Shown here: positions 949-7,552 of the stretch, piece by piece
How the letters are laid out: each line of letters starts with the position of its first letter
Position numbering within the stretch: position 1 is the first letter of the stretch
Origin: a virus
Taxonomy: Duplodnaviria > Heunggongvirae > Uroviricota > Caudoviricetes
Reading direction: 5' to 3' (one strand)
DNA: 7,552 bases
Virus record (IMG/VR): IMGVR_UViG_2744054627_000013
Position numbers and translations under genes: made by a program
The notes under the pieces: generated by a model
The model's input: the letters and a program-made list of their open reading frames with translations, nothing else
What the model was told of the DNA's origin: nothing
Database searches by the model: none

Positions 949-1764
949 ATGTTGCAGCCAGCAAAAAAAGCATCAGTTATTAGCGCGCGGCTAACTAAAT
1001 ACCTCAAAGATGGAGTGAGGATTGATGACTTTAGCTTTAGAAGGATGTTACGTGAGATTGAAGCACTTAGAGATCCTGTCTCTGAGGACTATCTTTTAGC
1101 GTTGGTCTATGGTGCACATGGCCAAGTGAATGAGGCGATAGGCTTCTTTGAGCGTTCCTTGCAGGTATGCCATAATGAGGTTGTTGCAAAGAATTTTCTT
1201 GTTTTCTTGTCAGATTACGGTACGTTGAAGAAAAGCTTTGAAACAAGCATTAAGCTTGCTGAAAGCTTCATATCCCCGTTTATTTATCTTCAAGCTTATG
1301 AAAACTCCCTCTTTATGGGGAAGATGGCGTTGGCGGAGAAGTATTTCCAGTCATACTCTAAATTGTTCGGAGATAAGGAGCCTGAAAAAATGGACAACAA
1401 TTTTGATGAAGTTGTTTCCCAGGTCGAATCCTTTAAGCAACGTGCCGATCTTTCTGGTTTAGAATATGAACTTATTTTCAATAATGTAGCCAATGTCATG
1501 GATTCTCAGAAGGTTCATCTTTCGGGAATGCGTTTTTATAATATTTCGGAAGAGAAAGTGAATGCGATTGTATTCATGACAAAGTCTTCTGATGCTGAAC
1601 AAATCGCTGATATGAATATTGAGCTTGCTTTTTCAATGGCTGAGCACGATTGTTTAGTCGGTAAAGATTTTGCTGTTTGGTTTGAATGTAAAGACACACA
1701 TATTGAGCAGAATGCTATCTCCGAATTAGGTCTGATTACCCGGAGGGTTGCACATGCCGGTTAA
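949..1764 (+). CDS. Hypothetical protein, 271 aa, first gene of the att-int cargo cassette; predicted largely helical, no domain recognised
   Basis: Long ORF with ATG at 949 preceded by AAGG about 6 nt upstream; ends with in-frame tandem stops TAA-TAG (1762-1767); sits in an AT-rich segment with its own upstream region and downstream terminator. Confidence 0.6.
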   Translation: MLQPAKKASVISARLTKYLKDGVRIDDFSFRRMLREIEALRDPVSEDYLLALVYGAHGQVNEAIGFFERSLQVCHNEVVAKNFLVFLSDYGTLKKSFETSIKLAESFISPFIYLQAYENSLFMGKMALAEKYFQSYSKLFGDKEPEKMDNNFDEVVSQVESFKQRADLSGLEYELIFNNVANVMDSQKVHLSGMRFYNISEEKVNAIVFMTKSSDAEQIADMNIELAFSMAEHDCLVGKDFAVWFECKDTHIEQNAISELGLITRRVAHAG

Positions 1765-2136
1765 TAGTCAAGATTTTCTCGGTTTTGCAAAGACTGTCAT
1801 CAACGTAATGACGAAATCGGCTATCGAAATGCTATAGCAAGATCCTACTATGGCGCTTACCATCATGTCTTGCCTTGTATGGTAAACGGGCCGAAAGACA
1901 GTCATCAGGGGCTAATCAATTATTTGCAGGGCGATGCTTCAAGAGGAAGTGAAGTATATGAAGCTAGATATCTAAAAGGGATTAGTTTTATCCTGAGTCA
2001 ACTTAAAGCTCAGAGGATTGTTGCAGACTATCGACTTGATCAATCGGTCACTTCTAAACAGTCTGAAGTTGCGATTCTAACAACTGAGAGGCTCTTTGCT
2101 AAGTGTACGGAAATGCTTAAATCGAGAGCCTCCTAA
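1754..2136 (+). CDS. Hypothetical protein, second gene of the cargo cassette, about 127 aa if one -1 frameshift between about 1768 and 1837 is corrected; contains an R-x6-HH motif (RSYYGAYHH)
   Basis: ATG at 1754 with strong SD GGAGGG 6 nt upstream, overlapping the last codons of the 271-aa gene. That frame stops at 1835-1837, but the frame carrying the annotated 88-aa ORF (1870-2136) is open back to 1768, consistent with a single-base deletion. The fusion is an inference. Confidence 0.45.
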
Positions 2137-2166: not shown

Positions 2167-3318
2167 TGATATTGCTGGTCGTATTACCGTCATATTCCTT
2201 TAAATATGAACCATAATGACGAAATAACATTTCCGGCCCTTTATGCCCCATTTGAGCTGCAAGCCAAAACAGGTTTGCTCCCGGCTGATATGGCGGGTGG
2301 CGAATGTATGCCTAGTTTGATATGGATTTCTGTAACGAATACCTGCTTTTCGCAATGTTGGCACCCATGCTTTTTCCTGATTGCATCAGCACTTGCCCAA
2401 GGCTTATTGGTCTTTGGATCTTCAAAGACAGTAGTATCCTTCATGAATGTAAATGGCTTCTGATTTATCAGCGCAACATTGCCTCTTCTGTCAGTTCAAC
2501 TTTCCGAGTACCTGCTTTTGTCTTTGTCCCTTTGATAACACCGACAACACTTGCGCTCTGGACATGGGCAGTTTTTCCAACAAAGTCGATATCACGCCAT
2601 CGAAGGCACATAATTCAGAACTACGCAGGCCTGTATGTATAGCGAACCGGAACAGATTTTCCCATTGTTTGTTTCCGGCTGCTGCTAGTAATGCATCAAC
2701 TTCTGCTGGTGATAGCGGATCAACTACGTAGCTGCTTTCTGCTTCTGACTTATCACTTTGGTAGCGCGAAGCTGTTACTAACGATACGGGGTTAATTTGA
2801 AGTACCCCATCGGTCACGGCTTCATCAAGTGCTGACCGCAGGAAAGATAACTGGTTGCGAATTGTTTTTAAGGTCGTTTTCTGATTTTGAATCCACGCTT
2901 TCAGGGTTGCTGGTGTTAATTCACTTGCAGGGCAAATGTGAAGTGAGGCTAACGCACTACGGCATTTTTTATAGCCACCAATCGTAGAGGGTGAAAGTTT
3001 TCTTGTTTCGCAGATTTCAAGATATTCGTCCAGGTACATCTTTACCGTTTTGCCTGCAGCAGCATTACCAAAAATTTTCAAACGAGCAGAACGGGGAAAA
3101 TATTCTGCATAAATGAATGTTCCCCTTTCGATCTTATTATGGATTTCGCCGAGTGTACGCTCGGCGTATTTAATGTTCTTTGGTGTTACTTCCAGATTGG
3201 AAAGCGGCTCACGACATCTAACTCCTTTGTAGGTGAAAGTTATATTGATCGTTTCTCCCTGGCGGTGTTTCCTGATTGTTACGCCGCGCGGTAGTTTGAG
3301 CAGTTTTGTCTGGCCCAT
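2150..3318 (-). pseudogene. int: Tyrosine integrase (lambda/P22-type with N-terminal arm-binding domain), about 390 aa when intact; interrupted by about 4 single-base frameshifts in the C-terminal half as sequenced
   Basis: ATG at 3318; N-terminal 275 aa in one frame (MGQTKLLKLPRGVTIRKH...HTGLRSSELCA). Integrase-like sequence continues in shifted frames: WRDIDFVGKTAHVQSASVVGVIKGTKTKAGTRKVELTEEAM, then ...FEDPKTNKPWASADAIRKK, then KAWVPTLRKAGIRYRNPYQTRHTFAT, then LFWLAAQMGHKGPEMLFRHYGSYLKEY... to TAA at 2150-2152. Catalytic R, K, H-x-x-R, H and Y are all present after correction. One shift is at a T5 run (2371-2375). Confidence 0.8.
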
Positions 3319-3485
3319 TTTGCAACCTCACTAAGATCAATCCACCTCTCCTTAACGCCTTCAACCTTTAAAACCTGAACACCTTCACGCCAAACACCGC
3401 GCTGTACACGTTTGTTTATTGCTTCAGGAGTTTCGCCAGTTTCTTTGCAATAAGTTGAGATAGGAACACAATCGAGGTTCAGCAT
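3279..3485 (-). CDS. xis: Excisionase (lambda Xis-like), 68 aa from the SD-supported start
   Basis: Directly upstream of int and overlapping its 5' end by about 40 nt, as in lambda. ATG at 3485 has GGAGAA about 5 nt upstream; product MLNLDCVPISTYCKETGETPEAINKRVQRGVWREGVQVLKVEG... resembles Xis-family winged-helix proteins. Longer N-terminal extensions (starts at 3497 or 3524) lack an SD. Confidence 0.6.
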   Translation of the reverse strand: MLNLDCVPISTYCKETGETPEAINKRVQRGVWREGVQVLKVEGVKERWIDLSEVAKWARQNCSNYRAA

Positions 3486-3526
3486 ACGTTTCTCCATTAT
3501 CCCGTCTGCACACGGGAGCAACATTA

Positions 3527-4393
3527 TTAACGAATAGTGTCGTTACTTTGAAGTACAGCAAATGCCATTAATACTTCTAAAGTATATCTTCTATAAAATT
3601 TAACAAAACCAACATAGAAAACATAGACGAAGAAAAAGCTAAGCATTATTGAAAGTAAACTATAAAGATAATCACTATGAGTACATAATCGATAAATAAA
3701 GGTTGGAACTGATACCCAAAATGAAATTATAAAGATTAAACATATGTTTCTGCAAAAACCATATAATGCAACATAGTTTTGAATTTTTGTTTGATGTTGT
3801 TTTGAAAACTCATAAACATAATGATATGCCAATCTGAAGAGATCATCATCAAGTCCGTTTTTATCTTGTAATAATTGGCGATTTGTTATGAACTTTTTCT
3901 CATAACCTTCTTTGATCATTAACCATGTTGTATTAGCTAAATGAAATGGTAGAGATTGAGAATAACATAGTTTTTGTGTTATAAAATCCCATAGTATTAT
4001 TGGACATAATACGCATTTGATTATGCGATTCTTTATTTTTGTTTTTTTATCAGCGCTTCTCTCATCGCATGATGGGCTACAAATGCTTTCTGAGGTATCT
4101 ATCAATTTTTTAAATAGATATTTGGAAGGATATCCTAATTCTTTATTCATGTATTTTTCGATAAAAAATGCTGACGTGATAGAAATAAAATGTCCAGCTA
4201 TATAAGATATAATAACTATTGAAGCGTAGTTCAAAATGCCAAAGATTTGACTTTGACCTCTGAGCAATTCACTTAAGTCAATAACAATATCTAGATCGAA
4301 TGTCAAACCACAGAAATACATTAATAGGATAAAAAAACCACCTGGTATTAAATATCCAAGAAAGTCATAGAATGAGAATGGATTTTGATTCAT
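3527..4393 (-). CDS. Hypothetical integral membrane protein, about 288 aa with about 5 predicted transmembrane helices, in a strongly AT-rich moron
   Basis: Long minus-strand ORF; ATG at 4393 preceded by GGAGA about 6 nt upstream (the TTG at 4417 in the ORF track is a less likely start). Hydrophobic stretches such as FFILLMYFCGLTF, IFGILNYASIVIISYIAGHFISITSAFFI, LIFIISFWVSVPTFIY and LLSIMLSFFFVYVFYVGFV. Composition is much more AT-rich than the flanking genes. Confidence 0.6.
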   Translation of the reverse strand: MNQNPFSFYDFLGYLIPGGFFILLMYFCGLTFDLDIVIDLSELLRGQSQIFGILNYASIVIISYIAGHFISITSAFFIEKYMNKELGYPSKYLFKKLIDTSESICSPSCDERSADKKTKIKNRIIKCVLCPIILWDFITQKLCYSQSLPFHLANTTWLMIKEGYEKKFITNRQLLQDKNGLDDDLFRLAYHYVYEFSKQHQTKIQNYVALYGFCRNICLIFIISFWVSVPTFIYRLCTHSDYLYSLLSIMLSFFFVYVFYVGFVKFYRRYTLEVLMAFAVLQSNDTIR

Positions 4394-4501
4394 TGTTGCT
4401 CTCCAATAATTTTTCAATTTGTAATATAACCTATATCTATATGTTAATAAATTACTTATATGTTCTTTTATGGCAGAGTTTGAATTCGTACGTGCTGATT
4501 T

Positions 4502-5024
4502 TTACGACTCAGTTAACTCTTTAAAGCGTTCCATAAACATCCCATAGGTATGGCCTGGCGACAGTGGAATAACTTTGAACATCTCTGTTGCCGGGATACC
4601 TTCCAGTACGGGCCAGAAAGAGCCATCATCAAGCCCGAGATCGCGGCGTTCGGTTGCCAGCATGATGAGATCGGCATATTTCACGGGCGTACTCATAACC
4701 GGGGTAACCCGTATTTCTCACGGATTACGGCGTCTATTTTTCTTCCATCCGTTTATAGTCAGGAAGAAGGCGTTTCAGTGGAGCCGGGATGTCCTGGCAA
4801 TACGCTTCTGTTGCATCATGCATTAACGCTTCAAAAGCAAATTCCTGCGGTACCAGCTGGCTGCAAAGCACCGCATGTTGGGCGACGCTGTAGAAGTGTG
4901 AAAGATGGCCGGCAAAGCGACAGATATTTGAAAGGGAAACCGCGATATCGTTAATATCGATGTTGTCTTTATTTATCCTGTCATAATAAAAATGTTTCCC
5001 GGAAAAAGTTTTAATAAATGACAT
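4502..5024 (-). pseudogene. yfdR: HD-domain phosphohydrolase, YfdR-like (5'-deoxynucleotidase family); split by two single-base homopolymer deletions as sequenced
   Basis: N-terminal part (ORF ending 4734) carries the HD signature region (...RFAGHLSHFYSVAQHAVLCSQLV...HDATEAY...) and ends ...KRMEEK-stop at a T5 run (4737-4741). The C-terminal part (4696-4502, MSTPVKYADLIMLATERRDLGLDDGSFWP...) is in another frame, restored after a G4 run at 4701-4704. ATG at 5024 has GGAG 6 nt upstream; a GTG at 5036 is an alternative start. Gene name is from memory of the CPS-53 yfdPQR module. Confidence 0.65.
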
Positions 5025-5157
5025 TTTGTTCTCCACTGTTTTATATGCGCTGCACCGCGCTGAATTTTGGTTAAAGAAAACCCTCCTCGCCTTCAGGCAT
5101 TATTGAGTCAATTACGTTTCCATAAATGCCCCCGCAGGGGCATTTGCAGTAATGAAA

Positions 5158-6410: not shown

Positions 6411-6875
6411 TTTGCTGCTCCTCATCATATCGACCCTGCAAGGTCGGTTAGTTTCTCCACAAAACAGAGAAGAACACCTGCGGTGACTGCCGCCCGGATG
6501 GATTGGGTTATGAGCCGTCGTCCGGTGATGCTCTTCTCTGTTTTGTAAAAGGACGGTACCAGCCGGAAGCAAGGGTACAAGCTGGTACCGCCAGGACTAC
6601 ACACAGCATAAAGTTGTGGTGCCGGGTGCCTCCCGGTGCCTGGCGAAGGTTGCACACCAGGCGGGTGGGTATCCACAGAAGGTCGACTGTCAGCCTCAAC
6701 CTTAACCCGCGTGCGCTGAGCCGCATTCACCACAACGCTAAGGATTCTCTCTGGTTGAAAATACTTAGCTGTTATGTGCCTGCTTTTAGCCACATCAGGC
6801 GAGGTGGACCTGGTTATTCCCCAACAACAAGGATTCGGTTAATCTGGTTATCCCCAACAACGCAAAAGGAAAGAA
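6411..6875. other. G+C-rich, hairpin-dense non-coding block between divergent genes; candidate structured RNA or complex regulatory region
   Basis: No ORF with a credible start or protein-like composition. 13-bp inverted repeat AAAACAGAGAAGA (6461-6473) / TCTTCTCTGTTTT (6532-6544) encloses 58 nt; 12-bp stem GACGGTACCAGC (6552-6563) / GCTGGTACCGCC (6581-6592) with one mismatch; further CCGGG/CCCGG hairpin at 6622-6636. Confidence 0.35.
6810..6861 (+). promoter_or_regulatory. Two direct repeats CTGGTTAT(T)CCCCAACAAC spaced 34 bp apart, immediately upstream of the + strand small gene; candidate operator or iteron sites
   Basis: Copies at 6810-6828 and 6844-6861, with a related CTGGTT at 6751-6756; the second copy ends 15 bp before the ATG at 6876. 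Confidence 0.35.
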
Positions 6876-7100
6876 ATGTCCGGTAATATCTATACGCTGT
6901 ACAAATCCCACTGTGAAAATGTTGGAAAGTATCGGGGCATTGAAATCAGTGGGGTAGTGTCATCAGTCGAAATAAGCAAAGTTGAATCAAGGGCAACATT
7001 ACTTACTCTTTTGGACCTTGTCTTACATGAGCACCGGAAGAAATTCGGCACTCCCTATAATCAGTTGAATGGGAAAAGGCTCTGGTTCACCTTATTCTGA
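6876..7100 (+). CDS. Hypothetical small protein, 74 aa, first of an overlapping pair (or N-terminal part of one about 143-aa protein if an A-run at 7074-7077 carries a deletion)
   Basis: ATG at 6876 with AAGGA 5 nt upstream; AT-rich; stop TGA overlaps the next ATG (TGATG at 7098-7102). Confidence 0.45.
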   Translation: MSGNIYTLYKSHCENVGKYRGIEISGVVSSVEISKVESRATLLTLLDLVLHEHRKKFGTPYNQLNGKRLWFTLF

Positions 7101-7309
7101 TGAAGCATCACTGGATGCCAAAACAGATTAATGAGATGAAATTTGATGAACTTCTTCTTTCAATTCAGGATGAACTCACACTTGATAAAATAAGCGTAAC
7201 CGCCCAGAAATTTTTAGATTATCGAGACTGGAGATCACAAATTCATCACTTTGATGATTTTGACGAAAATGAATGGGATCCTAATTTGTCTGCACAATAT
7301 CTAAAGTAA
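7100..7309 (+). CDS. Hypothetical small protein, 69 aa, acidic C-terminus (DDFDENEWDP); overlaps the upstream gene by one base
   Basis: ATG at 7100 within TGATG; its frame is open upstream to 7061, so fusion with the 74-aa ORF cannot be excluded; 3' end overlaps the convergent minus-strand gene by 29 nt. Confidence 0.45.
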   Translation: MKHHWMPKQINEMKFDELLLSIQDELTLDKISVTAQKFLDYRDWRSQIHHFDDFDENEWDPNLSAQYLK

Positions 7310-7487
7310 CATCCTGTGATAAAACCGTGATTTCCTGATCCAGTTTTTTTAAGGAGTCTATTGTTTCCTGTCGATAAGACAGCACTTCACGAAGCTGGTT
7401 TATAGCTGCCAGCTTCTTTGTCATCCACTCATAAATTTCCTCATCTGTGTAGCCAGGCGCGACGATTTTGGGTTCTGTTTTGTGCAT
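7281..7487 (-). CDS. Hypothetical small phage protein, 68 aa
   Basis: ATG at 7487 with GAGGAG about 7 nt upstream (MHKTEPKIVAPGYTDEEIYEWMTKKLAAINQLREVL...); the track's start at 7502 is a TTG without an RBS. Confidence 0.5.
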   Translation of the reverse strand: MHKTEPKIVAPGYTDEEIYEWMTKKLAAINQLREVLSYRQETIDSLKKLDQEITVLSQDVTLDIVQTN

Positions 7488-7552
7488 TTCACATCTCCTC
7501 AAGTTATCAGTTACTTGTTGATGGGACCAGATTGTTAAGAGCTAAGCGTCGT

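Follow-up and report, generated by a model that had tools for sequence, protein, structure and literature searches.

A single ECs1072-family gene is split into two open reading frames

The two short open reading frames (ORFs) found at positions 6876–7309 on the plus strand of the DNA analysed here, a stretch of 7,552 nucleotides referred to below as the window, correspond to one gene of the ECs1072 family (NCBIfam NF033230, PHROG 5286) that was very probably split by the under-calling of a homopolymer, and the intact gene is probably a moron expressed in the lysogen. As judged from its sequence, it belongs to a prophage family that is already in the catalogues, with unknown function, and comes from a lambdoid, SfIV/CPS-53-like prophage of E. 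coli. It spans 434 nt in the window and 435 nt when intact, and its frame is broken once, at positions 7074–7077, where the window carries a run of four A (A4) and every reference carries five (A5).

ORF1 (6876–7100, plus strand; 74 aa) runs from an ATG at 6876 to a TGA at 7098–7100, and ORF2 (7100–7309, plus strand; 69 aa) runs from an ATG at 7100, corresponding to the internal Met76 of the intact protein, to a TAA at 7307–7309. The junction between them, TCTGATGAA, contains a TGATG overlap in which the single base 7100 is common to stop and start. The reading frame of ORF2 is closed upstream by a TAA at 7058–7060 and is thus open from 7061, and the AAAA run at 7074–7077 is located inside ORF1. 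A first-pass annotation made from the sequence alone had already described these coordinates, the overlap, the open frame and the A run, and all of them were found as it had them. The good ribosome-binding site that it had also assigned holds for ORF1, which is preceded by the Shine-Dalgarno sequence AAGGA at 6866–6870 of the plus strand (6866–6875 with its spacer), but not for ORF2, since no Shine-Dalgarno was found in the sequence preceding its start, CACCTTATTCTG. The GC content of the ORF pair is 38%, compared with 41.7% for the window. ORF1 is basic (pI 9.46), and ORF2 is acidic (pI 4.93, net charge −6), with the acidic C-terminus noticed before corresponding to the tail DDFDENEWDP.

Comparison of positions 6700–7552 with 5,426 complete E. 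coli genomes by megablast revealed full-length matches in 410 of them. The best E. coli matches are 99.5% identical, and their annotation shows one CDS at the locus, under the name 'ECs1072 family phage-associated protein'. In E. coli THO-003, the intact CDS has 435 bp (protein WP_000016389.1), and pairwise alignment within the gene showed no substitution, the change from A5 to A4 at 7074–7077 being the sole difference. A second homopolymer deletion lies upstream of the start codon, in the spacer of the ribosome-binding site (6870–6872; A3 in the window, A4 in the references). As deposited, the window does not encode a single polypeptide of about 144 aa, its frame being broken; the insertion of one A in silico restored the exact 144-aa protein. 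This protein occurs on at least 1000 contigs and, with no difference, as gp36 of Shigella phage SfIV (YP_008766900.1) and in several E. coli phages. Both the SfIV and the THO-003 copies have the position (between yfdP and the early-left genes on one side and a cI-like repressor on the other) and the orientation of the gene in the window, and a single ORF was observed in SfIV and in the E. coli prophages examined; the window copy differs from the family in being one base shorter, which results in two ORFs. The alternative raised by the first-pass annotation, that loss of one base from the A run had split one gene of roughly 143 aa, was therefore correct, including the site.

Searches with the NF033230 model (142 positions, curated cut-off of 70 bits) led to the same result. 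The repaired 144-aa protein matched positions 2–142 with 157.8 bits, above the cut-off, whereas ORF1 (positions 2–66, 62.5 bits) and ORF2 (positions 74–142, 65.3 bits) each remained below it, their matches being contiguous on the model. PHROG 5286 was matched end to end. In terms of the intact protein, ORF1 (6876–7100) contains true residues 1–67 followed by seven out-of-frame residues (RLWFTLF) and a stop, and ORF2 (7100–7309) contains true residues 76–144. Residues 68–75 (KALVHLIL) are encoded by neither ORF; the codons for A69–L75 (ALVHLIL), at 7079–7099 of the plus strand, lie in the second frame upstream of the ORF2 ATG and are translated by neither. Because both halves match one curated family model, the ORFs, at the level of sequence, are not a chance pair, and whether the base was lost by artefact or by mutation, the locus is one broken gene.

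Family conservation and predicted structure

The stop-start overlap, together with a basic (pI 9.5) and an acidic (pI 4.9) product, gives the pair a superficial likeness to type II toxin-antitoxin (TA) systems, which likewise consist of two small overlapping ORFs, one basic and one acidic. A TA or anti-defence pair was in fact the headline of the first-pass annotation, and would imply a module of two genes translationally coupled through TGATG. We find this interpretation scarcely credible. The homologues of ECs1072, unlike TA pairs, are single genes, and the ORFs of the window are fragments of one domain: both are halves of the NF033230 model, their products lack residues 68–75 with the nearly invariant A69 and H72, and ORF2 has no ribosome-binding site of its own. 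Close and intermediate relatives (72%, 56% and 52% identity) have 144–151 aa, and a profile search of 1.84 billion representatives identified about 76 family clusters (clusters at 50% identity), most of them with 143–157 aa and matching in one stretch; representatives spanning the break point are single polypeptides. A conserved gene pair was also considered and discarded, since the E. coli prophages examined, SfIV, ST64B, Serratia and the relative with 56% identity each have one ORF, as do most of the 76 representatives. Furthermore, no TA family (Pfam, NCBIfam, PADLOC) and no defence family was matched.

Members and relatives of the family were found in prophages of Escherichia, Shigella, Salmonella, Serratia and Klebsiella; a profile search with a 4-sequence alignment recovered 3 related loci only. 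The nearly invariant residues are L50, R54, L64, G66, A69, H72 and W134 (47/48-sequence alignment), and four of them (L64, G66, A69 and H72) belong to a conserved L64–H72 motif that straddles the break. The structure predicted by AlphaFold2 from 47 sequences is one compact all-alpha domain (pLDDT 94.3, pTM 0.88) in which a helix, residues 67–78, sits at the break. Both halves thus fall in one predicted domain, which argues further against two separate products, and on this model the contrast between a basic and an acidic half is a charge asymmetry of that domain. Altogether, the intact protein is predicted to be soluble and to fold into a single compact all-alpha domain, and its C-terminal tail is acidic, contains a Trp and is conserved.

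Searches for a known function gave little. Pfam was not matched by either ORF or by the intact protein, and a Pfam scan of 47 family members showed no shared family. In NCBIfam and PHROGs, the ORFs and the intact protein matched only NF033230 and phrog_5286, both of unnamed function, and no defence family of PADLOC-DB 2.0 was matched by the intact 144-aa protein at E ≤ 1. Sequence searches of the PDB with the 4- and 47-sequence profiles gave no match, and Foldseek comparisons of a first model with the PDB and of a second model with BFVD returned nothing with E < 0.6; the modelled protein would then be without recognisable structural relative in the PDB and BFVD.

The all-alpha phosphohydrolase fold of the HD, HD-GYP and HDOD proteins was evaluated as a candidate and rejected, with scores in the noise range of helical proteins and about half of the domain aligned. 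The metal-binding residues H...HD...D of the HD phosphohydrolase superfamily were not found either: the ECs1072 family has a conserved H53-R54 in place of the HD dyad, and is not a member.

Origin of the missing base

The frequency of the A4 allele was determined with a query of 84 bases centred on the A run. All 420 complete E. coli genomes that matched it carry A5 and none carries A4. In addition, a 30-mer holding A4 was absent from 185,579 species-representative genomes, and, of about 15 billion proteins, a single entry has the exact 74-aa product of ORF1: OAF30411.1 (locus tag AXK30_03375), on a 7552-bp contig that is the window itself.

These observations bear on a programmed event, in which the A run would be slippery and the full-length protein would be made by recoding, or switched on and off by phase variation. 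The break does fall in an A run, where slippage occurs. On the other hand, the zero-frame codons at the site are AAT GGG AAA AGG, with no in-frame X XXY YYZ heptamer, and the presence of A5 in 420 of 420 complete genomes leaves no length polymorphism for phase variation. Neither transcriptional slippage nor phase variation is known to be efficient on runs as short as four or five A. The probability of such a mechanism appears negligible.

To compare the window with its closest relative, strain 98208, 7,078 bases were aligned, and 2 substitutions and 16 one-base deletions were found. In each of the 16, it is the window that lacks the base (binomial p = 3e-5), and runs of 3 or more account for 14 of them (p = 3e-8). 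The sites are 290, 792, 1788, 2279, 2370, 2473, 2604, 4700, 4736, 5098, 6514, 6546, 6869, 7073, 7522 and 7536, nearly all of them homopolymers. The deletion rate per run increased with run length, from 0.03% for single bases to 0.1%, 1.3%, 4.4%, 10.7% and 22% for runs of 2, 3, 4, 5 and 6, respectively. One-base losses also break the integrase gene (~2190–3360), yfdR (4507–5036), a gene for a 127-aa protein (~1754–2136) and an ORF in the ypjA remnant (5–307).

The same data allow a genuine frameshift to be weighed, in which the ECs1072 gene truly lost one A, leaving a pseudogene behind as the prophage decays. Accessory genes of prophages can be dispensed with, other strains have truncated or split copies (for example, pieces of 90 aa and 57 aa on one complete genome), and a neighbouring gene is annotated as 'frameshifted' in all the references examined. 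However, the A4 allele is unique to one contig, and 16 one-directional, length-dependent deletions against 2 substitutions in 7 kb is a ratio unlike natural decay. In quantitative terms, runs of length 5 lose a base in the window at a rate of 7–11%, and the upper bound on the frequency of a natural A4 allele is about 0.7%, which results in a likelihood ratio of at least ~10–15 in favour of an artefact. A genuine frameshift is therefore improbable, if considerably less so than recoding or a two-gene module. Since the losses are length-dependent, one-directional and nearly free of substitutions, they point to under-calling rather than natural decay, and the missing A is most probably a homopolymer under-call in a draft contig and not a mutation.

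The TA-like appearance of the pair, with one small basic and one small acidic ORF, thus most probably goes back to one miscalled homopolymer in a draft contig of low quality, which calls for caution. Because 15 more such errors break the integrase gene, yfdR and other genes, any call of a small ORF, pseudogene or frameshift in this window is suspect and should first be compared with intact relatives.

Genomic context of the ECs1072 gene

In strain THO-003, the ECs1072 CDS is located between the early-left operon with yfdP, yfdQ and yfdR and a LexA/cI-type repressor, and the same gene arrangement was observed in strains E14 and 98208. The gene is counter-oriented to its neighbours in E. coli, in SfIV, in the 56%-identical relative and in the Serratia relative, in the last two cases among early genes. 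More remote relatives (about 30% identity) were found as unannotated 144-aa ORFs on the opposite strand between the Q and holin genes of ST64B and KPP5665-2. In Salmonella phage ST64B, the remote ORF occupies positions 3281–3715 of the plus strand and is unannotated, the overlapping gene on the opposite strand being annotated as sb50; in Klebsiella phage KPP5665-2, the ORF at ~3001–3279 is likewise unannotated and overlaps an opposite-strand gene annotated as GP45.

In every context examined, the orientation of the gene was independent of that of the flanking operon. This context supports the passing remark of the first-pass annotation that the locus resembled a moron: both the intact gene and the more distant relatives run consistently against their neighbours in prophage accessory slots. 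The convergence that it had described with the minus-strand genes applies to the right side only. There, a 68-aa gene of unknown function (7281–7487, minus strand; WP_000549623.1, PHROG 1744) is the sole convergent neighbour and shares 29 nt with the 3′ end of the ECs1072 gene, whereas the minus-strand genes to the left (6425–6793 and yfdP) are divergent. The product of the 68-aa gene is not Arg-rich and thus does not look N-like.

The GC content of the ECs1072 gene is 38%, compared with 46.7% for neighbouring genes, and in a microarray analysis of the O157:H7 Sakai lysogen (PMC2241611), ECs1072 was listed with the genes whose expression changed significantly with growth phase. In the literature, the name 'ECs1072' was found in one microarray table only, that of the same study (PMC2241611). 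Both the lower GC content and the microarray listing fit a moron expressed in the lysogen. From these analyses, the intact gene is real and probably a lysogen-expressed accessory gene ('moron'). It lies within the leftward early operon in antisense orientation, adjacent to the immunity region.

In its general features, the gene resembles the known morons of lambdoid phages. Morons and lysogenic-conversion genes of these phages occupy the immunity-region and Q-lysis slots, as in the case of rexAB and bor of lambda and stx of the Stx phages. Like the ECs1072 gene, they are small, counter-oriented or autonomous cargo of lower GC content, located either next to the immunity region or in the interval from Q to holin, and are detected in lysogen transcriptome data. 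The ECs1072 protein itself shows no sequence or structural relationship to characterised moron proteins.

Regarding transcription signals, a consensus scan revealed no sigma-70 promoter upstream of the gene on the plus strand. A direct repeat, CTGGTTAT(T)CCCCAACAAC, is present at 6803–6862 of the plus strand, immediately upstream of the start codon, with its two copies 34 nt apart; from its sequence and position, it may bind a regulator or serve as a promoter element. Downstream, a terminator-like hairpin with a weak T tail was found by consensus match at 7391–7416 of the plus strand, about 80 nt past the stop codon, and is a possible end of the ECs1072 transcript. Three terminator-like sites were found, against 0.9 expected.

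Possible role of the intact protein

The gene context and the conserved acidic tail are the two grounds for proposing a protein-binding role. In this proposal, the tail, which is C-terminal and contains a Trp, would let the intact protein bind a partner protein in the lysogen and so bring about exclusion or modulate the host. Upon induction, firing of the leftward early operon would shut the ECs1072 gene off by head-on antisense transcription. We suggest, as a tentative possibility, that the family, expressed in the lysogen, could serve in superinfection exclusion, in defence or in modulation of the host, and that its all-alpha fold could be one not described before; such a protein might act through the conserved acidic F-x-D...EW-x-P tail. 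With its wide distribution (at least 1000 contigs) and confidently predicted fold, the gene is a reasonable but unremarkable candidate for screens of prophage accessory genes.

Other features of the window

A search of the whole window against Rfam revealed no RNA family, and a tRNA scan found no tRNA. Two genes are located at 949–2136 (plus strand), between the remnant of the ypjA autotransporter gene and the integrase gene. The first encodes a 271-aa protein with weak TPR matches, and the second, of 127 aa in the references and split here by the deletion at 1788, has a weak HEPN_IX match (E 1.3e-3). By their sequence and location, they may form a cargo module of two genes at the end of the prophage.

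The ORF at 3527–4417 (minus strand) has a GC content of 28% and encodes a predicted multi-pass membrane protein of 288 aa, WP_001075212.1 in the references. It lies between the xis-like gene and yfdR, and THO-003 has different genes at this position. No Pfam match was found, and PADLOC gave a weak match to Csx27 (E 1.4e-5). Csx27 is a membrane protein associated with type VI-B CRISPR systems. The ORF may be a cargo or exclusion gene.

The intergenic region between yfdR and yfdQ (5037–5098) shows multi-base insertions with respect to all the references fetched (TGTT for G, and an extra CTC), and also carries one deletion outside a homopolymer. These differences, unlike the homopolymer losses, look like real sequence variation. 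Finally, the ORF at 6425–6793 (minus strand), upstream of yfdP, is 'frameshifted' in all three RefSeq references, and this may reflect either a genuine widespread frameshift or a difference in annotation; in SfIV, the corresponding region is occupied by one CDS of 681 bp (gp34) that is continuous with yfdP.
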